Program-made: the position numbers and the translations under genes
Virus record (IMG/VR): IMGVR_UViG_3300045988_005587
Location: 1 to 5,971 of that record
Length of the DNA: 5,971 bases
Origin: a virus
Strand: one strand, 5' to 3'
Shown: piece after piece, positions 1-5,971 of the stretch
How the letters are laid out: each line of letters starts with the position of its first letter
Numbering within the stretch: position 1 is the stretch's first letter
The notes under the pieces: generated by a model
The model's database searches: none
Told to the model about the DNA's origin: nothing
The model's input: the letters and a program-made list of their open reading frames with translations, nothing else

Positions 1-77
1 CCAATAAACAGGAAGACTACTTCATGATAATGGGAGGTAGTCTGATTGTAGACGGAGGAACCATAACAACTAATAAT
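1..77. repeat. Terminal redundancy copy 1, identical to 5895..5971. This is a linearisation overlap of a circular genome.
   Basis: Base-by-base comparison: ccaataaacaggaagactacttcatgataatgggaggtagtctgattgtagacggaggaaccataacaactaataat occurs at both window ends. Confidence 0.95.
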
Positions 78-1493
78 GGTAATGTATTCAGCAAAACAAA
101 CTATACTGGTATTTATGGGTGGTTAAACTTCAATTATGAAAATGTATTAACAGTAACATTACCCAAATCTCTATGGGAAACATATCAAAAAACGAAAGAA
201 TTAGAAACATGGTTTGAATTATTAGACGGAAGAACATTAAAATTTAACGCAGTTCTATACGGGGACGAAAAAGCCGAAACAAAAGGAGACAACGTTGTCT
301 TAACATTTGACCGACCACGTACAGGCAAATGGAGTATATCAAGTGGAGAACTAGAGAATAATACTAACTATGCTCTAACAGGAGTAAGTCATGTAGTAAG
401 TAAAGGGACAACTGTAGAAACCTACACAAGCTCATACAAACTGGAAGAAATCGACAACTTAAGAGAGTATATTCTGAAGCAGGGGAAAAAGGAAGTCTTG
501 ATAAAGGCTGATTCTACGGAAGAATGGATAGGAACATCATTCATTAAGGATGTACTAACAGGGACGGCAGAAACAGGAAATAGTGAACCAAAAGTCAAAA
601 TGCCAATTATCCAGATGGAGATGGGCGGACTGTGTCTGAAAACGCTGCAAAGCGACATCTTTAACAACTGGGTCAACAAAGAGTGGGTAGACGGAGATAA
701 CGGAATCAAAGCAATTACTGACGTAGCAATTACTGACGGGAAACTGAACCTGGACAGCCTGAACATTGCACAGAAAGTATACAACATGCTAAACCGTATT
801 GCAGTGTCAGGAGGAAGCTATAAGGACTGGATTGAGACGGTATATACTACAGACTATTACTTCAGAGCAGAAACACCGGTATACGAGGGTGGTATGTCAA
901 CAATAATTGACTTTGAAGCGGTGGTAAGTAACTCGGCAAGCACAGCTAGCGGGGTAGAGGAACCGTTGGGAAGTCTGGCAGGACGTGGATTCAACGGACA
1001 GAAGAAAGGCGGAAAGATTAAGATTAAAGTCAATGAACCTTGCTATATCATGGGTATTGCAAGCATTACGCCACTAGTAGACTACTCTCAGGGTAACGAC
1101 TGGGACAACTGGTTAGAGACTATGGATGACTTGCACAAACCGCAGCTGGACGGTATCGGTTATCAGGATTTGATGGAGAACAAGATGCACGGACTGGCAA
1201 GGCCGACACTAGCAATAGGAAAACAGCCTGCATGGCTGGACTACATGACCAATTTCAATAAGTCATTCGCAGACTTCGCAGCAGGAGGCAAGGAAAGCTA
1301 TATGGTGTTGAACCGTATCTACAATGTGAACAATGAAGGACACATCACCAACGCAACAACGTATATCAATCCAAAGGACTACACATATATCTTTGCGACC
1401 AACACGGAGACCAACAGGGACTTCTGGGTACAGATTGGTTGCGGAGTAACTGCAAGACGAGTAATGAGCGCAGCTCAGATTCCATTAATGTAA
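1..1493 (+). CDS. VP1: Microviridae major capsid protein (VP1/F family), C-terminal portion. It continues from 5378..5894 across the circular junction; the first full codon starts at base 3 and the stop is TAA at 1491-1493.
   Basis: The frame is open from the window start (NKQEDYFMIMGG...), not only from the ATG at 24. The same peptide ends the 5378..5971 frame. The joined product is 2010 nt (669 aa), typical of non-Bullavirinae microvirus capsids, and it is the largest ORF in a roughly 6 kb single-strand-coded genome. Confidence 0.9.
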   Translation, partial: NKQEDYFMIMGGSLIVDGGTITTNNGNVFSKTNYTGIYGWLNFNYENVLTVTLPKSLWETYQKTKELETWFELLDGRTLKFNAVLYGDEKAETKGDNVVLTFDRPRTGKWSISSGELENNTNYALTGVSHVVSKGTTVETYTSSYKLEEIDNLREYILKQGKKEVLIKADSTEEWIGTSFIKDVLTGTAETGNSEPKVKMPIIQMEMGGLCLKTLQSDIFNNWVNKEWVDGDNGIKAITDVAITDGKLNLDSLNIAQKVYNMLNRIAVSGGSYKDWIETVYTTDYYFRAETPVYEGGMSTIIDFEAVVSNSASTASGVEEPLGSLAGRGFNGQKKGGKIKIKVNEPCYIMGIASITPLVDYSQGNDWDNWLETMDDLHKPQLDGIGYQDLMENKMHGLARPTLAIGKQPAWLDYMTNFNKSFADFAAGGKESYMVLNRIYNVNNEGHITNATTYINPKDYTYIFATNTETNRDFWVQIGCGVTARRVMSAAQIPLM

Positions 1494-1504
1494 TAATTAA
1501 CAAT

Positions 1505-1837
1505 ATGGGAAAACCAAGAATAATCGAGAAAAGCCATAACGTGGGATTCTACGTGATGGAAGCCTATGAAGGCAAAACAATAGAACAGAGGTGCCGGGAA
1601 ATGGTGGAAACGGGTGAGCCAATCAAGGATACATCACCGTTAATATATACACCAAAAGAAAAAGGAGTAAGACCTGAATACAATGTACGAGCGGACAAGT
1701 GGGATATTGCTCAGGGAGCAATGGACGCGGTGAATAAGGAAAGGATTGCCAAGGGACAACAACCTCCTAATGTGAACAATGGAGAAGAAACGCCAATGGG
1801 CGCGCCTGAATCGAATCAGGCTGGGCAGCCGAGCTGA
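1505..1837 (+). CDS. Hypothetical 110-aa acidic protein between VP1 and VP2. It may be an internal scaffolding (VP3-like) protein.
   Basis: I prefer the ATG at 1505 over the track start at 1439, which lies inside VP1. The 12-mer AACAATATGGGA around this ATG (1499-1510) is repeated exactly at the VP2 start (1931-1942). The scaffold idea rests on size, charge and position and is only a guess. Confidence 0.6.
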   Translation: MGKPRIIEKSHNVGFYVMEAYEGKTIEQRCREMVETGEPIKDTSPLIYTPKEKGVRPEYNVRADKWDIAQGAMDAVNKERIAKGQQPPNVNNGEETPMGAPESNQAGQPS

Positions 1838-1854
1838 CACTCGGGTTAAACAAC

Positions 1855-1876
1855 TGTGCGTACTTCGGTACGCACA
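1855..1876 (+). other. Perfect 9-bp GC-rich hairpin with a C(UUCG)G tetraloop in the VP3-like/VP2 intergenic region. It could be a transcript 3' end, an RNA stabiliser or an ssDNA structural element.
   Basis: tgtgcgtac (1855-1863), ttcg (1864-1867), gtacgcaca (1868-1876). A 7-bp all-AT hairpin follows: tatatat 1883-1889 pairs with atatata 1896-1902. There is no trailing T-run, so it is not a canonical intrinsic terminator. Confidence 0.75.
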
Positions 1877-1936
1877 CAGCCGTATATATCGAGTTATATA
1901 TAATCGCTTTTGGAAAAAGCGCGAAAACAAAACAAT

Positions 1937-3022
1937 ATGGGATTCTTAGATTTTTTAGGAAACGGAGGGTCTGGCCTAATTACAGGACTTGCCAACACAA
2001 TAACAGGAGCCGTACAGAACAAGAAAGCACTGGCATGGCAGAAAGAGCAATGGCAGCAATCAATGGATTACGGTCGGGAGATGTGGGAGAAACAGAACGA
2101 GGCAGAAAATGAACGTATGGCACTGCAGAACCAGTGGAACAAGGATGCAGCAGCGCAGTCACAGCAGTATGCTAAAGAGATGTTTGACTATACGGGTTAC
2201 GAGAACCAGGTAAAACAGATGAAGGCCGCAGGACTGAATCCAGCACTGATGAACGGTGGCGGAGGTTCAGCAGGACAGGCAAGTGCAGGAGCTGAAGTAC
2301 AGCCTGCTCAGGCATTCCAGCCAATGGGCATTCAGATGGCATTACAGGCACAGCAGGTAATGGCCAACACTCAACTAGCTAATGCTCAAGCTCAAAAAAC
2401 AAGAGCTGAAGCCACGGCACAGAACATGCAGAACCTGATAGGCAGCAGCATAGACTTAGCTCAAAAGATTGGCGAGATAGGGAAAACAAAGCAGGAAAAG
2501 AAAAACCTGAAGGCTACATATGACAAGACAGTGAAAGAAGTCGAGATGGTTCAGGAAGAGGTTAATAACCTTATGCTACAGGGAGATATACTGAAAGAAA
2601 ACAAAGAGCTGCTTGAATTCCAGAACGGAGTGAACAGGATTATCAAGAATGGAGTATACTTCGATAGCAAGGGCAAAGAGGTAAATTGGCAGGAGGCGGT
2701 ACTCATAAGGTATTTCGGACCTCTCGGCAAGGAAATGTCACAGTGGGAGAAAGACGAAAAACAGGCATTGTTCGACAAAGGTGTCCTGGAGCGTCTGATG
2801 AATGACATAGATGCCATTGCAACAGGTAAGGTTAACGAGTACTCACTGTCAGGAATGAAATTTGACTTAATGCAGAAACAGTGGGAAAGAGAAGACTTCG
2901 AGCTGGAACAGGACAAAGCAGCATCCAATCTGCTTGAGGAGCTGACAGGCGAAGGAGAATATGCGAGATTGTTAGGCAAATTCTTGAAATTACTGTTAAG
3001 ATTCAACAAAGGCCGCAAGTAA
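1937..3022 (+). CDS. VP2: Microviridae minor capsid / DNA pilot protein (VP2, H-like), 361 aa.
   Basis: It has a Gly-rich hydrophobic N-terminus (MGFLDFLGNGGSGLITGLANTITGAV). The motif QVKQMKAAGLNPALM matches the AGLNP signature I recall from microvirus VP2 proteins. A Q/A-rich segment is followed by a K/E-rich, heptad-like C-terminal half. I prefer the ATG at 1937 over 1910 because of the shared AACAATATGGGA start context. Confidence 0.8.
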   Translation: MGFLDFLGNGGSGLITGLANTITGAVQNKKALAWQKEQWQQSMDYGREMWEKQNEAENERMALQNQWNKDAAAQSQQYAKEMFDYTGYENQVKQMKAAGLNPALMNGGGGSAGQASAGAEVQPAQAFQPMGIQMALQAQQVMANTQLANAQAQKTRAEATAQNMQNLIGSSIDLAQKIGEIGKTKQEKKNLKATYDKTVKEVEMVQEEVNNLMLQGDILKENKELLEFQNGVNRIIKNGVYFDSKGKEVNWQEAVLIRYFGPLGKEMSQWEKDEKQALFDKGVLERLMNDIDAIATGKVNEYSLSGMKFDLMQKQWEREDFELEQDKAASNLLEELTGEGEYARLLGKFLKLLLRFNKGRK

Positions 3023-3321
3023 GTCGCGCGCGTACGTATATCGCACACGCACGGAATCAACTTGACGATCATATTTTGGGCGTCTCCCTACGGGCCGGGC
3101 TTTCCGGCTCAGACAAATGCCCTACGGGCATACTCGCCTGCAATCCCTGACGCACTATGCAGAATTCGCTACTATGTGGCGCGCAATCGCCGCGCGGCTA
3201 GCATACATAACAACAAGAGGTCGGACCACCTGAAGATGATAGCATCATCGGAAGAAGTTTACGACCTCTTATTGTTATGTATGAATATTATATTAAAGTA
3301 AAACTTAAACAAATTATAATT
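3023..3321 (+). other. GC-rich, hairpin-dense noncoding region between VP2 and Rep. It is a candidate replication-origin or regulatory region.
   Basis: Hand count for 3023-3200 gives 104/178 G+C (58%) in an otherwise AT-rich genome. Hairpins: 3092-3110 (gggccgg/gcttt/ccggctc with one G-T pair), 3117-3131 (atgccc/tac/gggcat) and 3202-3283. The 10-mer CCCTACGGGC occurs twice (3086-3095, 3120-3129). CAACTTGA lies at 3058-3065. Confidence 0.7.
3202..3283. repeat. Long imperfect inverted repeat: 22-bp arms with one mismatch and a nested 6-bp hairpin.
   Basis: Arm 3202-3223 (catacataacaacaagaggtcg) pairs with 3262-3283 (cgacctcttattgttatgtatg). The only mismatch is C3214/A3271. The nested hairpin is gatgat 3235-3240 / agc / atcatc 3244-3249. 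Confidence 0.9.
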
Positions 3322-4263
3322 ATGTGCCTGTATACTAAGTATTTATTGAACAAAAAGTATTTACCGACAAAGAAAAATGAACATAATCCGCCAGTATGCC
3401 ACGATGAAAGGCTAAGATATGTACCGATAAAGTGCGGAAAGTGCATGGAATGCCGAAAACAGAAAAAAAGAGAATGGTATGTACGACTGTCTGAAGAGCT
3501 AAAAAGACACAAGGGAGCATTATTCCTGACTCTGACATTCAATGAAGATATGTATGAAGAGACGCGCAAAGCCGTGAATGCAGGAATCCATCCGACCTAT
3601 GAAGAGGAGAATGATATGTGCCGTTATGCAATAAGACACTGGTTGGAACTAATACGGAAGAGAACAGGAAAATCCGTCAAGCACTGGGTAATTACCGAAA
3701 AAGGTGAAGATTATAACCGCATACACATGCACGGTATAGTATGGTGCAGAAAGGAGGATGTAGACGCATGGCGTTACGGATATACCTACATAGGGGACTA
3801 TGTCAACGGCGAGACAATCAACTACATTACCAAGTATATGCTGAAAATCAACGAAAATTGTCCTGAATTCGAGGGGAAAGTATTCTGTAGCCAAGGCATA
3901 GGAAGAGGTTACGAAAAAAGCACAAATGCAAGACGAAACAGATATCAGGAAGAACGTACTATCGAGACATACAAGACAGCGGACGGACGAGAGCTGCCAA
4001 TGCCAAAGTACTACCACGACAAGATATACTCAGAAGAAGAGCGCGAAAAGTTATGGATTATCAAGCAGGAAAGGGGCTACAGATACATAGGAGGTGAAAA
4101 GTGCAGTACAGAAGACCTCGAAGAATGGGACAACCTGACAAGATACTATCAAAGACGGGGTGTAGAAGTGTTTGGAGACAGACCCGACGAATGGGAGAAA
4201 GAAAAGCAGCGCAAACGTCTGGAGCGTATGAAAATCGCCAGGCGTCGGATGCACGGAGGTTAA
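3322..4263 (+). CDS. VP4: Microviridae replication initiator protein (VP4/gpA-like HUH rolling-circle endonuclease), 313 aa.
   Basis: RCR motif 1 is FLTLTF (3523-3540). Motif 2 (HUH) is HMHGIVW (3724-3744). Motif 3, with two tyrosines, is YITKY (3823-3837). An N-terminal Cys cluster reads CH-x13-CGKCMEC. I prefer the ATG at 3322 (MCLYTKY...) because the upstream ATG at 3277 sits inside the right arm of the 22-bp stem. Confidence 0.9.
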   Translation: MCLYTKYLLNKKYLPTKKNEHNPPVCHDERLRYVPIKCGKCMECRKQKKREWYVRLSEELKRHKGALFLTLTFNEDMYEETRKAVNAGIHPTYEEENDMCRYAIRHWLELIRKRTGKSVKHWVITEKGEDYNRIHMHGIVWCRKEDVDAWRYGYTYIGDYVNGETINYITKYMLKINENCPEFEGKVFCSQGIGRGYEKSTNARRNRYQEERTIETYKTADGRELPMPKYYHDKIYSEEEREKLWIIKQERGYRYIGGEKCSTEDLEEWDNLTRYYQRRGVEVFGDRPDEWEKEKQRKRLERMKIARRRMHGG

Positions 4264-4321
4264 TAACCTGTTGATAACCTATCAAAATCGGTTAATAAAC
4301 CTGTTAATAAGTTGTTGATAA
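4258..4321 (+). repeat. Five phased copies of GTT(A/G)ATAA, organised as two roughly 20-nt direct repeats plus one extra copy. The array begins at the Rep stop codon.
   Basis: The octamers lie at 4259-4266, 4270-4277, 4291-4298, 4303-4310 and 4314-4321, with spacings of 11, 21, 12 and 11 nt. The larger units are GGTTAATAACCTGTTGATAA (4258-4277) and GGTTAATAAACCTGTTAATAA (4290-4310). Confidence 0.85.
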
Positions 4322-4369
4322 AAAGATGACTTAAAATTTGGAATATTGAAATATTTTAATAGGAAGGAA

Positions 4370-4466
4370 AGTTATGAACAATGCAAATAAATAAATGAAA
4401 AGTTATGAACAAAGTTATGAACAGGATAAATGATTGAAAATAAATGAATTAACATAGTTATGAACA
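4370..4466 (+). repeat. Iteron-like array: four exact copies of AGTTATGAACA interleaved with three copies of ATAAATGA.
   Basis: The 11-mer lies at 4370-4380, 4401-4411, 4413-4423 and 4456-4466. The octamer lies at 4391-4398, 4426-4433 and 4440-4447. Degenerate relatives are TATGAACA at 4590-4597 and TTATGGAACA at 4611-4620, the latter spanning the ATG at 4613. Confidence 0.85.
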
Positions 4467-4549
4467 GTTTCAACAGGCTATCATATACATATAGATTTAT
4501 TTTAATAGAAAAAAATATTATTAGATTATAATAGAATTTTGTTCAAAAT

Positions 4550-4580
4550 TTTGTGTTTTCAAAAACAATGCCTACATTTG
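4550..4580 (+). promoter_or_regulatory. Candidate Bacteroidota-type promoter: -33 TTTG, 19-nt spacer, -7 TAnnTTTG.
   Basis: TTTG lies at 4550-4553 and TACATTTG at 4573-4580, 33 nt upstream of the ATG at 4613. It is the only TAnnTTTG match I found in noncoding DNA and the only one with a correctly spaced upstream TTTG. Confidence 0.5.
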
Positions 4581-4612
4581 TAATGTAAATATGAACAATT
4601 AAAATAACAATT

Positions 4613-4825
4613 ATGGAACAGAATTACAGAATTACAATTTTTACTGCCGAAGGAGTCATAGAAGGAAATTTCTACAAAAAAGAAATAGCCATTAGTACGA
4701 TTGTAGAATTTAAAAAACGTTATGATGATTTCATAATAGGAATAGTATCAGAAAAAATCTACGGAAAATGGAACACTATATGTAGCATATCAAATGGAAG
4801 AAATAAAATTATTCATAATATTTGA
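4613..4825 (+). CDS. Hypothetical protein, 70 aa, first ORF of the small-ORF cassette.
   Basis: It is the first ATG after the candidate promoter. Its start context, AACAATTATGGA, resembles the AACAATATGGGA seen at two other genes. The composition looks protein-like, but I recognise no family. Confidence 0.55.
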   Translation: MEQNYRITIFTAEGVIEGNFYKKEIAISTIVEFKKRYDDFIIGIVSEKIYGKWNTICSISNGRNKIIHNI

Positions 4826-4967
4826 AACCGAATTCGTTAACGAAAAAACTGGACAGGTAGTAAACCTAACTACCACCTGCGGCAGTTATAAAGAGTTAGG
4901 AAAGTATTTAACAGACATGGAAAGAAAATCATGGAGAATGTTACAAGTAAAAAGGAAAGAAAACTGA
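4794..4967 (+). CDS. Hypothetical protein, 57 aa, absent from the supplied ORF track.
   Basis: Hand translation gives MEEIKLFIIFETEFVNEKTGQVVNLTTTCGSYKELGKYLTDMERKSWRMLQVKRKEN followed by a stop. It bridges the gap between 4825 and 4931, overlapping both neighbours (by 32 and 37 nt) in the compact style of this genome. The start context is A-rich, ATGGAA. Confidence 0.4.
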   Translation: MEEIKLFIIFETEFVNEKTGQVVNLTTTCGSYKELGKYLTDMERKSWRMLQVKRKEN

Positions 4968-5149
4968 TTAAGCTACTAGTAGTAGCATGGGTATTAGCAG
5001 CAACACTAGGAGGATGCGTGGTAAGTCTCAACATTCAGAAGAATAATCAAAACAGCACACAATCCGTATCGCAGGAGAATGAGGCGACTCAAAAAAATGA
5101 CAGTACCAACTTTAATATGAATACGAAAAATGGAAAAGAACAACAATGA
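4931..5149 (+). CDS. Small predicted lipoprotein, 72-aa precursor. It has a signal peptide with an LGGC lipobox and a 43-residue N/Q/S/T-rich polar mature tail after the lipidated Cys.
   Basis: The basic n-region is SKKERKLIK, the hydrophobic h-region is LLVVAWVLAATL, and the lipobox L-G-G-C places Cys29 at 5015-5017. The mature region contains no further hydrophobic segment. Confidence 0.6.
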   Translation: MENVTSKKERKLIKLLVVAWVLAATLGGCVVSLNIQKNNQNSTQSVSQENEATQKNDSTNFNMNTKNGKEQQ

Positions 5150-5381
5150 TTTTATCGAGGTTTACAAAGGAATCACAAGAATTGTAAAGACTAAGGAACA
5201 TGATGAAGATGTATGGTTTGCCGTAATTGGCAAAACAATTGTTTCACGTGGGACATTCAAAACAAAAAAAGAATGTATAAATGACCTGGAAAAGACTGAT
5301 TATGAACAGATTTGTAAGATTGCTCTTGCTGTTGTTACAGCTCTTAAGGATTATAAACCGGAAAAAGTAAAAGAAGTATGA
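5130..5381 (+). CDS. Hypothetical protein, 83 aa, probably translationally coupled to VP1.
   Basis: Its stop codon overlaps the VP1 start as ATGA (5378-5381). The start context is A-rich, ATGGAA. I recognise no family. Confidence 0.6.
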   Translation: MEKNNNDFIEVYKGITRIVKTKEHDEDVWFAVIGKTIVSRGTFKTKKECINDLEKTDYEQICKIALAVVTALKDYKPEKVKEV

Positions 5382-5971
5382 AAATAAACATAGGAAAGAA
5401 CACACTGGGTGACAACAATAAAATGTCCGTATCTCTAAGAGAGTATGGACGCAGTACACATGACCTGTCTTATGCGTGGAGGTCACCTATGGGAGTAGGC
5501 ACACTGGTACCGTTCATGAAGATACTAGCGTTACCAGGAGATACCTTCGATATCGACTTGGATACAAAAGTACTAACACATCCAACAGTTGGGCCTCTAT
5601 TTGGACAGTTCAAAATGCAACTGGACGTATTCACATGTCCATTGAGATTATACCAAGCTCAACTACATAACAATGCACTGAATATCGGGCTGGACATGAA
5701 AAAAGTGAAACTGCCTAAGTTTGCACATAGCTACAAATCAATAGAGGGTGAAAGCAGGGAAGGTACAAGAAGGTCAGGAGTAGGAAGTCTAGCAGAATAT
5801 CTTGGATTAAGATATGAACCCTTCAGGGACAAGGTTACCAATGCCAATGCAGTACCTTACTTTGCGTATTACGATGTATTCAAAAATTTCTACGCCAATA
5901 AACAGGAAGACTACTTCATGATAATGGGAGGTAGTCTGATTGTAGACGGAGGAACCATAACAACTAATAAT
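5378..5971 (+). CDS. VP1: Microviridae major capsid protein (VP1), N-terminal portion. The frame runs off the window end and continues at base 78 by way of the 77-nt overlap.
   Basis: Hand translation shows no stop codon: MKINIGKNTLGDNNKMSVSLREYGRSTHDLSYAWRSPMGVGTLVPFMKILALPGDTFDIDLDTKVLTHPTVGPLFGQFKMQLDVFTCPLRLYQAQLHNN... The blocks STHDLS, LPGDTF and LDVF-CP-RLY match the conserved N-terminal blocks I recall for Alpavirinae/Gokushovirinae capsids. The ORF is missing from the track only because it has no stop inside the window. Confidence 0.9.
   Translation, partial: MKINIGKNTLGDNNKMSVSLREYGRSTHDLSYAWRSPMGVGTLVPFMKILALPGDTFDIDLDTKVLTHPTVGPLFGQFKMQLDVFTCPLRLYQAQLHNNALNIGLDMKKVKLPKFAHSYKSIEGESREGTRRSGVGSLAEYLGLRYEPFRDKVTNANAVPYFAYYDVFKNFYANKQEDYFMIMGGSLIVDGGTITTNN
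5895..5971. repeat. Terminal redundancy copy 2, identical to 1..77.
   Basis: Same 77-nt string as at the window start. Confidence 0.95.

Follow-up and report, generated by a model that had tools for sequence, protein, structure and literature searches.

The window analyzed here is the whole of a 5,971-nucleotide (nt) stretch, positions 1 to 5,971 of IMG/VR virus record IMGVR_UViG_3300045988_005587, and it holds a complete circular microvirus genome of 5,894 nt together with a 77-nt terminal redundancy. The plus strand carries every gene. Among the small open reading frames (ORFs) of this genome, the one at positions 4931 to 5149 is a real gene, conserved far beyond chance, and it belongs to a protein family that is new as a described entity. 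From its sequence we infer a product in the form of a lipid-anchored, O-glycosylated periplasmic peptide of 44 residues, its lipidation, glycosylation, and location all being predicted. We put it forward, tentatively, as a lysis or release factor of microviruses that infect Bacteroides.

Anatomy and conservation of the lipoprotein gene

The predicted prolipoprotein of 72 amino acids (aa) can be divided into the following parts, for which we give the ratio of nonsynonymous to synonymous substitution rates (dN/dS) where it is relevant.

4931 to 5149, plus strand: complete ORF for the 72-aa prolipoprotein, including the stop codon; frame conserved in relatives, dN/dS well below 1
4931 to 4972, plus strand: n-region of the predicted signal peptide, M1 to K14, net positive, with KKERKLIK; Lys or Arg within the first seven residues, as a PROSITE-type rule demands
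4973 to 5005, plus strand: h-region of the predicted signal peptide, L15 to T25, LLVVAWVLAAT, recognized by hydropathy
5006 to 5017, plus strand: lipobox L26-G27-G28-C29, with Cys29 (5015 to 5017) the predicted site of lipid attachment and cleavage
5015 to 5062, plus strand: conserved block 1 of the mature peptide, C-V-V-S-L-N-I-Q-K-N-N-Q-N-S-T-Q, alternating hydrophobic and polar residues and then KNN
5096 to 5122, plus strand: conserved block 2, N-D-S-T-N-F-N-M-N, with an alternating, beta-strand-like pattern
5099 to 5107, plus strand: invariant D57-S58-T59, matching the Bacteroidota O-glycosylation sequon
5123 to 5146, plus strand: variable C-terminal end, TKNGKEQQ

An earlier note on this DNA, made from the letters alone, had read a basic n-region, a hydrophobic h-region, and an LGGC lipobox with Cys29 at 5015 to 5017, and all of these are present as it described them. 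The N terminus (MENVTSK-KERKLIK) and the lipobox, with LGG directly ahead of C29, pass a rule modeled on PROSITE PS51257: the n-region is charged, the h-region is uncharged and hydrophobic, the residue at position -1 is small, and the Cys falls within positions 15 to 35. The h-region LLVVAWVLAATL reaches a Kyte-Doolittle maximum of 2.66, and its variation consists of conservative I/L/V/M changes. After residue 31 the hydropathy is negative throughout, without a C-terminal transmembrane domain (TMD). The mature part has 44 residues counting the Cys (43 after it), of which 59% are N, Q, S, or T with the Cys included. AlphaFold2, run on a 13-sequence alignment, assigned the mature part a predicted local distance difference test (pLDDT) score below 50, which is consistent with no stable fold, and the sole confident segment was a helix at residues 11 to 20 (pLDDT, 84). 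The earlier note had described the 43 residues after the Cys as an N/Q/S/T-rich, probably disordered tail. Its account of the composition was correct, but the region is not loosely constrained: no other part of the protein is under stronger constraint than the tail, which surpasses even the capsid in conservation.

By the Nei-Gojobori method, the close clade has a dN/dS of 0.034 in the mature part, at a dS of 0.55, and of 0.31 in the signal part; across clades the ratio ranges from 0.03 to 0.26 and from 0.05 to 0.31, respectively. Codons 29 to 62 vary synonymously at many positions in the close clade with the amino acids unchanged. The earlier note had made its reading depend on conservation of the frame in relatives, and the frame is conserved, with 91 of 112 related genomes carrying the gene. 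Because the ORF is conserved in relatives, is under purifying selection, and changes its codons synonymously, we judge that it did not arise by chance. The tail is unusually invariant at the protein level and both ends of the ORF overlap neighboring ORFs, as might be expected if the ORF were not a gene and its conservation came from an overlapping frame or from an element acting at the nucleotide level, for example an origin or packaging signal. We find this hardly credible: synonymous sites vary freely (dS of 0.55 in the close clade), serine positions change between TCN and AGY codons from lineage to lineage, the central 162 nt overlap no other plus-strand ORF, and there are no Rfam matches. 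The synonymous variation rules out both kinds of source for the invariance of the tail.

The family is large and confined to microviruses. A large protein collection contained 994 relatives of the single window sequence and, with a family profile, 4,342 clusters at 90% identity; when 1.84 billion representatives were searched exhaustively with HMMER, 117 clusters at 50% identity were obtained, essentially all of 44 to 150 aa, with no longer cellular homologue. Apart from a Bacteroides prophage, all members come from microvirus genomes of about 6 kb, and a profile search of Protein Data Bank (PDB) sequences with the family returned no match even at E = 10. The total length is 63 to 72 aa, the Cys lies 28 to 33 residues after the Met, and nearly all types have Lys or Arg within the first seven residues of the n-region. 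There are at least six signal-peptide types, with lipoboxes LGGC, VQSC, AQSC, GVSC, LQAC, TTAC, and ITGC, and about 98% of 454 members have G, S, or A at -1 when the double Cys of type C is allowed for. Some natural variants have the Cys region deleted or the C terminus frameshifted (L094, L088, and entries such as P0254, P0256, and P0343); these may be assembly errors or defective genomes and, if real, may serve as natural knockouts.

In an alignment of 14 types (A3), only Cys29 and Asp57-Ser58-Thr59 are invariant, with Lys37 and Asn39 nearly so, and D-S-T is invariant in a further alignment (A5) as well. The mature part has the consensus C-[TV]-x-[SM]-[LM]-x-[IV]-x-K-N in block 1 and D-S-T-x-[IF]-N in block 2, both with alternating hydrophobic and polar residues. 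The depth of this conservation is clearest between lineages. The capsid protein VP1 of L010, a genome of the lineage of phage phiHBP1, is 23 to 25% identical to VP1 of L024, L016, and the prophage L113, and despite this divergence the mature core of its lipoprotein is 82 to 91% identical to theirs. Nucleotide identity over the same core is 62 to 70%, and 14 to 18 of the 24 to 28 codons for identical residues differ synonymously, with TCN/AGY serine switches among the differences. Recent horizontal transfer is ruled out as the source of the identity by this low nucleotide identity and by the serine switches; the comparison instead indicates ancient common descent under very strong purifying selection. 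Identity of the mature core across divergent capsids, combined with synonymous change, therefore favors a conserved host target and disfavors recent transfer.

Three capsid lineages at 23 to 26% VP1 identity all share the lipoprotein (L010, 5400 to 7274; L113, 8124 to 10490). Kirchberger et al. (2022) found almost no gene sharing across microviral families (PMC9239249), and the lipoprotein family may prove helpful as a deep marker of microviruses that infect Bacteroidales. In the same study, small proteins averaging 65 aa, mostly without assigned function, link microviral families in a protein-sharing network (PMC9239249), and the lipoprotein family may be one of these. Public annotations of its members read "hypothetical protein," "FliL," and in one instance "toxin"; the "FliL" name given by the Joint Genome Institute (JGI) is spurious and comes from sub-threshold NCBIfam matches (17 bits, versus a cutoff of 187). 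Full-text literature searches returned no paper linking microviruses to a lipobox or a lipoprotein gene, and neither the provirus paper (PMC3091885) nor the 81-genome microvirus paper mentions the gene.

Three features had escaped the earlier note: the extreme conservation of the tail, the invariant D-S-T sequon, and a link to the DUF6486/smalltalk mini-proteins. The O-glycosylation sequon of Bacteroidota consists of three residues, D-(S/T)-(A/I/L/V/M/T) (PMC8550257), and the modification is periplasmic and applied to non-cytoplasmic proteins, with sites near-fully occupied and an engineered sequon sufficient (PMC12871550, a 2025 review). D57-S58-T59 matches this sequon and lies in a predicted non-cytoplasmic soluble region. 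A sequon is found 24 to 32 residues after the Cys in 433 of 454 distinct full-length members (95.4%), versus 17.6% of composition-matched shuffles; the acceptor is Ser in 432 of the 433, and the third residue is T (398 members), A (14), I (10), V (7), L (3), or S (1). In Bacteroides thetaiotaomicron, an acidic lipoprotein export signal (LES), CS(D/E)2, is required for surface exposure, and lipoproteins without it face the periplasm (PMC6222051). None of the 454 members has an acidic residue at +2 to +5, where this surface-export motif would lie, and because the acidic signal is absent the peptide is expected to stay periplasmic.

The link to smalltalk concerns the other end of the protein. Pfam DUF6486 (PF20096, 31 positions) and NCBIfam smalltalk (NF033879, 29 positions) find matches in several family types over the first 29 residues, which make up the helix as far as the Cys, with scores of 30 to 56 bits (top, 55.7) against a cutoff of 22.7 and of 29.6 against a cutoff of 24.7; the window's own protein matches neither. 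On the strength of these profile matches, the signal peptide of some members is homologous to the DUF6486/smalltalk mini-proteins. Genuine smalltalk ORFs, identified in a metagenome scan (contigs L166, L167, L168, L170, L171, L175, and L176), are chromosomal in Bacteroidales and have 30 to 36 aa; they start MKKETWKEI...LTALG..SC, like the matching microviral types, and end 1 to 4 residues after the Cys, without a mature peptide. The copy on L170 lacks the Cys. Smalltalk directly follows an HU-HIG DNA-binding gene in all five independent loci, with DUF3987/PriCT_2 or VapE-like genes adjoining, and in one independent locus (L175 and L176, which are near-identical contigs) it directly precedes a gene for an N-acetylmuramoyl-L-alanine amidase (Amidase_2), an arrangement that resembles a pair of small membrane protein and lysin. 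A search with a duplicated 29-aa smalltalk query and a scan of viral contigs both returned microviral family members only. By analogy with the signal peptide of colicin lysis proteins, these observations hint that the helix module may itself have an envelope-related role.

Host, distribution, and peptidase-bearing relatives

A scan of one genome per bacterial species with a five-type alignment located the gene in two Bacteroides records. In L113 it belongs to an integrated prophage of about 6.4 kb, within a 3.7-Mb chromosome contig of Bacteroides sp. f07, where the lipoprotein gene, VP1, VP2, and Rep follow one another in this order between a host gyrA-like gene and other host genes. Because of this integrated prophage, we assign Bacteroides as the host. 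The first isolated Bacteroidota microvirus, phiHBP1, infects Bacteroides fragilis (PMC13064476) and belongs to a sister lineage.

In a sample of 80 genomes chosen by Rep similarity alone and not by the lipoprotein gene, nearly every complete genome carries it. Among the 112 related genomes mentioned above, seven encode a Peptidase_M15_3 protein in place of the lipoprotein and 14, mostly fragments, have neither. With loci added later, the lipoprotein was present without the peptidase in 94 genomes and the peptidase without the lipoprotein in 10, and the two never co-occurred. The lipoprotein gene behaves as a core gene of the clade. It lies directly upstream of VP1 in several clades; in the window one ORF separates it from VP1, and the phiHBP1-like clade has it upstream of Rep.

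Trees of VP1 and Rep place the gene in all three deep lineages and imply two losses, so placed that the gene looks ancestral and lost at least twice. One loss affects the Peptidase_M15_3-bearing sister clade of the phiHBP1-like lineage. The other affects a clade nested within the window-like lineage, one genome of which, L111, carries a candidate LAS-fold peptidase: a 101-aa ORF at 3929 to 4234 with H-x6-D and HxH motifs and a sub-threshold Pfam match to the Hedgehog N-terminal domain (E = 0.0015). We take that domain to share the LAS metallopeptidase fold, and the ORF may encode a very small peptidoglycan peptidase. Three complete circular genomes of 5.0 to 5.6 kb (L104, L106, and L107) have no lipoprotein, no peptidase, and no obvious transmembrane ORF.

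The earlier note had held that microviruses outside the phiX-like group offer no established lysis gene. That account was incomplete, as M15_3 peptidases were proposed in 2012 by Roux et al. as endolysins in Alpavirinae and Gokushovirinae (PMC3394797), and phiHBP1 itself carries one (Pfam E = 4e-17; L042, 84 to 488, minus strand). The M15-bearing genomes of the phiHBP1-like clade are L042, L048 to L053, and L115 to L117. Their M15_3 peptidase has no signal peptide, and no transmembrane ORF was seen in phiHBP1, the only one of these phages checked for it.

Layout of the rest of the genome

The other plus-strand features of the window are given below.

5378 across the junction to 1493, plus strand: major capsid protein VP1, 669 aa
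1505 to 1837, plus strand: VP3-like ORF
1937 to 3022, plus strand: pilot protein VP2
3322 to 4263, plus strand: Rep/VP4
4550 to 4580, plus strand: candidate Bacteroides-type promoter TTTG-N19-TAcaTTTG, a motif match alone, 33 nt upstream of the small-ORF cluster
Small-ORF cluster running into VP1 (start, 5378), plus strand: ORFs of 70, 57, 72, and 83 aa, the lipoprotein being the 72-aa ORF
4794 to 4967, plus strand: 57-aa ORF, the upstream neighbor, overlapping the first 37 nt of the lipoprotein ORF
5130 to 5381, plus strand: 83-aa ORF, the downstream neighbor, overlapping the last 20 nt of the lipoprotein ORF

Apart from these end overlaps of 37 and 20 nt, the lipoprotein gene is free-standing, with its central 162 nt clear of any other plus-strand ORF, and it is not embedded in another gene. 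The candidate promoter was recognized by what we take to be the Bacteroides promoter consensus. In the window clade, the small-ORF module (4794 to 5381) is better conserved than the capsid, pilot, and Rep genes in comparisons with L002, L006, and L008; against L002, the module is 86 to 89% identical and VP1, VP2, and VP4 are 52 to 65% identical, which suggests either stronger constraint or modular exchange. Inside the 83-aa ORF, in another frame, lies a Leu/Arg-rich ORF of 29 aa (MTWKRLIMNRFVRLLLLLLQLLRIINRKK, 5281 to 5370) that could be detected in no more than 4 of 12 close relatives. It may have arisen by chance or represent an overprinted gene peculiar to one lineage.

Two noncoding regions contain repeats. 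A GC-rich stretch between VP2 and Rep (3023 to 3300), in a genome that is AT-rich elsewhere, holds a 22-nt inverted repeat (3202 to 3223 and 3262 to 3283, 95% complementary, with a 38-nt loop) and the direct repeat CCCTACGGGC at 3086 and 3120. The stretch has no Rfam match; it might act as a terminator or origin or form a structured RNA. L010, of the phiHBP1-like lineage, has a comparable GC-rich stretch at about 2850 to 3300, ahead of its lipoprotein gene. The AT-rich intergenic region after Rep (4264 to 4612) holds iterated repeats, with three copies of AAAGTTATGAACA (4368, 4399, and 4411) plus degenerate copies and two of GTTAATAA-N-N-TGTTGATAA (4259 and 4303). These repeats look iteron-like and may be Rep-binding or origin sites.

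A possible lysis or release factor and its known analogues

Host lysis by microviruses other than those of the phiX174 group has awaited an explanation for decades, and these viruses rank with the most abundant of the human gut. In the window genome, the lipoprotein ORF is the only plus-strand ORF with a strong signal or transmembrane segment, and PHROG and Pfam searches matched none of the genome's proteins to hydrolase, holin, or spanin families. We favor a role in lysis or progeny release because the peptide is the sole membrane-targeted product of a genome in which no hydrolase, holin, or spanin was found, because its gene is a core gene that never accompanies M15_3, and because of where the trees place its losses. 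As the earlier note proposed, then, there is a genuine, conserved microviral lipoprotein; the lysis role that the note attached to it is plausible and is the best-supported guess. That the periplasmic lipo-glycopeptide acts as a lysis or release factor is the best current candidate explanation, one to which we give somewhat less than even weight, its target and lysis function both being inferred.

Under this proposal, the protein would be exported through Sec with its 28-residue signal peptide inserted in the inner membrane; Cys29 would be lipidated and the signal peptide removed by signal peptidase II; and Ser58 of the D-S-T sequon would be O-glycosylated by the general periplasmic system of Bacteroidota. 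The lipid-anchored glycopeptide would remain on the periplasmic side, where its conserved blocks (C-x-x-S-L-x-I-x-KNN and DST-x-F/I-N) could bind a highly conserved component of the Bacteroides envelope. Conservation on this scale, whatever the divergence of the capsids, is more easily reconciled with a conserved, essential target in the host than with a receptor. The most likely outcome would be lysis or release of progeny by a single-gene lysis factor, acting in the manner of the small colicin lysis lipoproteins or of a periplasmic inhibitor of cell-wall synthesis and related to neither. The fuller claim, that the lipidated and O-glycosylated peptide is the lysis effector of the abundant Alpavirinae-like gut microviruses and acts in the periplasm on a highly conserved Bacteroides target, is less probable.

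Several observations weigh against a lysis role. The case for it is computational; homology to known lysis proteins was not found with PHROG, Pfam, or hhalign, and AlphaFold2 predicted no fold. Only two independent loss events underlie the complementarity with peptidases, the second of which (L111) depends on a sub-threshold Pfam match, and two complete relatives (L104 and L106) have neither lipoprotein nor peptidase. The M15 peptidase has no export signal, and its role as a lysis enzyme has only been proposed. As for processing, most family types have an atypical residue, Q or H, at lipobox position -2; type C breaks the strict PROSITE rule with its Cys at -4; and N, K, or D stands at -1 in a few divergent members. 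About half of the non-cytoplasmic proteins of Bacteroidota carry a sequon (PMC12871550), so that the presence of one is by itself weak evidence and only its invariance is informative. Retention of the gene in a prophage fits a lysogen-expressed function such as exclusion equally well.

Exclusion, which the earlier note had also raised, is one of three other functions that we weighed. An outer-membrane peptide on the periplasmic face that blocked a receptor or DNA delivery, in the manner of T5 Llp or Cor, would protect infected cells or lysogens and would spare progeny from loss on debris and vesicles. A small periplasm-facing lipoprotein, encoded by a separate small gene upstream of the capsid gene and kept in an integrated Bacteroides prophage, has the right architecture for superinfection exclusion or receptor masking. 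We nevertheless consider this unlikely, given that the gene behaves as core rather than accessory and that the mature peptide is near-identical across capsids sharing 23 to 25% identity, which probably use different receptors. Its absence exactly where a peptidoglycan peptidase is present would also be unexpected of an exclusion gene, and there were no PADLOC matches and no Pfam or PHROG match to exclusion proteins; a match to the NCBIfam entry-exclusion protein TrbK, at E = 0.1, was not significant. The peptide could also have some other periplasmic role as a lipo-glycopeptide, such as remodeling of the envelope, capsule, or vesiculation or interference with host lipoproteins or glycans, with lysis left to an unrecognized overprinted gene. 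Overprinted microvirus genes are known and hard to detect (PMC9239249), L104 and L106 presumably lyse their hosts with neither lipoprotein nor peptidase, and the window has the 29-aa Leu-rich ORF embedded at 5281 to 5370. The window has no other conserved membrane-targeted ORF, however, and the complementarity with peptidases would be left unexplained, and we rate this alternative on a par with exclusion.

A further alternative keeps the helix in place. The protein could be an uncleaved type II membrane protein or leave a stable signal peptide, in either case with an active transmembrane helix (holin- or pinholin-like, or membrane-perturbing) and with the Cys put to another use, such as a disulfide. 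The helix is long, with 28 to 30 residues ahead of the Cys, and in types B to D it is itself strongly constrained (dN/dS, 0.05 to 0.13); Q or H at lipobox position -2 is atypical; and the homologous DUF6486/smalltalk proteins, which are little more than helix and Cys, can precede an amidase gene in a holin-endolysin-like order. In the window clade, however, constraint is strongest on the tail (dN/dS of 0.03, versus 0.31 for the helix), and the tail is common to types whose helices differ in sequence. Signal peptidase II requires just such a small -1 residue and a Cys at a set distance, and the window's own helix has no DUF6486 match. This alternative thus seems distinctly improbable to us, and a processed lipopeptide that acts in lysis or release is still our preferred explanation.

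The finding offers a concrete candidate of 72 codons, a host genus with good genetics, and a natural comparison in the M15-bearing sister phages. If the lysis role is true, the peptide would represent a mechanistically new class of single-gene lysis protein (Sgl), the first to be a lipoprotein and the first to depend on host glycosylation; its conserved periplasmic target in Bacteroides, once identified, would reveal a new weak point in the Bacteroidales envelope and might help to manipulate the microbiome in a targeted way. If the peptide is instead an exclusion factor, it would be the first in Microviridae and relevant to gut phage-host dynamics. Either way, thousands of "hypothetical," "FliL," and "toxin" entries can be reannotated as one family.

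Comparison with known lysis proteins narrows the possibilities that the earlier note had raised. Like protein E of phiX174 and other amurins, the window protein is one small membrane-targeted protein of a tiny phage without an endolysin. E acts on MraY through its N-terminal TMD, its C-terminal part is dispensable, and its gene is overprinted in gene D. The window protein, by contrast, has a lipobox, its helix is predicted to be removed and its constrained part to be periplasmic, and its gene lies within no other gene. An amurin was one suggestion of the note, and the E type fails because constraint falls on the extracytoplasmic tail and not on the TMD (dN/dS of 0.03 versus 0.31), because the gene is not overprinted, and because of the lipobox; we know of no Sgl that is a lipoprotein. 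A second suggestion of the note was a spanin, and o-spanins (lambda Rz1, PF06085) and u-spanins (T1 gp11) are likewise small outer-membrane lipoproteins that phages use in lysis. This suggestion does not hold either, because there is no i-spanin partner (no other transmembrane ORF lies on the plus strand of the window genome), no C-terminal TMD, and no endolysin; a holin and a proline-rich mature part are missing as well. Membership in Rz1 was rejected in the absence of a Pfam match to PF06085 and at an hhalign probability of 3%, and a u-spanin of the T1 gp11 type was rejected on the combination of a lipobox with no C-terminal TMD. The hhalign reference sequences, for colicin lysis proteins, Rz1, and entericidin, were validated against Pfam; entericidin homology was rejected at a probability of 1.5%.

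T5 Llp and Cor are also small phage lipoproteins that face the periplasm, where they bind an outer-membrane component. They are accessory or early proteins directed at one receptor (FhuA), whereas the window gene is core across very different capsids; no PHROG, Pfam, or PADLOC match to Llp or Cor was found, and their sequences were not compared directly. The M15_3 peptidases of Alpavirinae, Gokushovirinae, and phiHBP1 share with the lipoprotein the niche of presumed lysis gene and never occur with it, but they are enzymes of bacterial or phage origin, horizontally acquired, without a signal peptide, and not lipopeptides.

The closest functional analogue is provided by the colicin lysis or bacteriocin release proteins (BRP) of Pfam Lysis_col (PF02402), such as the pCloDF13 BRP and ColE1 Kil, and the likeness is architectural only. 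Membership in Lysis_col was rejected, with no Pfam match at E up to 1 and an hhalign probability of 1.9%, the lipobox alone being aligned. Both the colicin lysis proteins and the window protein are very small prolipoproteins predicted or known to yield a short polar lipopeptide. That of the colicin lysis proteins has about 28 to 35 residues, is S/T/Q/N/G-rich and unstructured, and alone permeabilizes the envelope and causes quasi-lysis. The colicin lysis genes lie in SOS-induced colicin operons of enterobacterial plasmids, whereas the window gene is a core gene of Bacteroides phages. Its peptide exceeds theirs in length and, by far, in conservation, and it has an invariant O-glycosylation sequon. 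The stable signal peptide of the colicin lysis proteins contributes to their toxicity, and the constrained helix of the microviral family may be its parallel.

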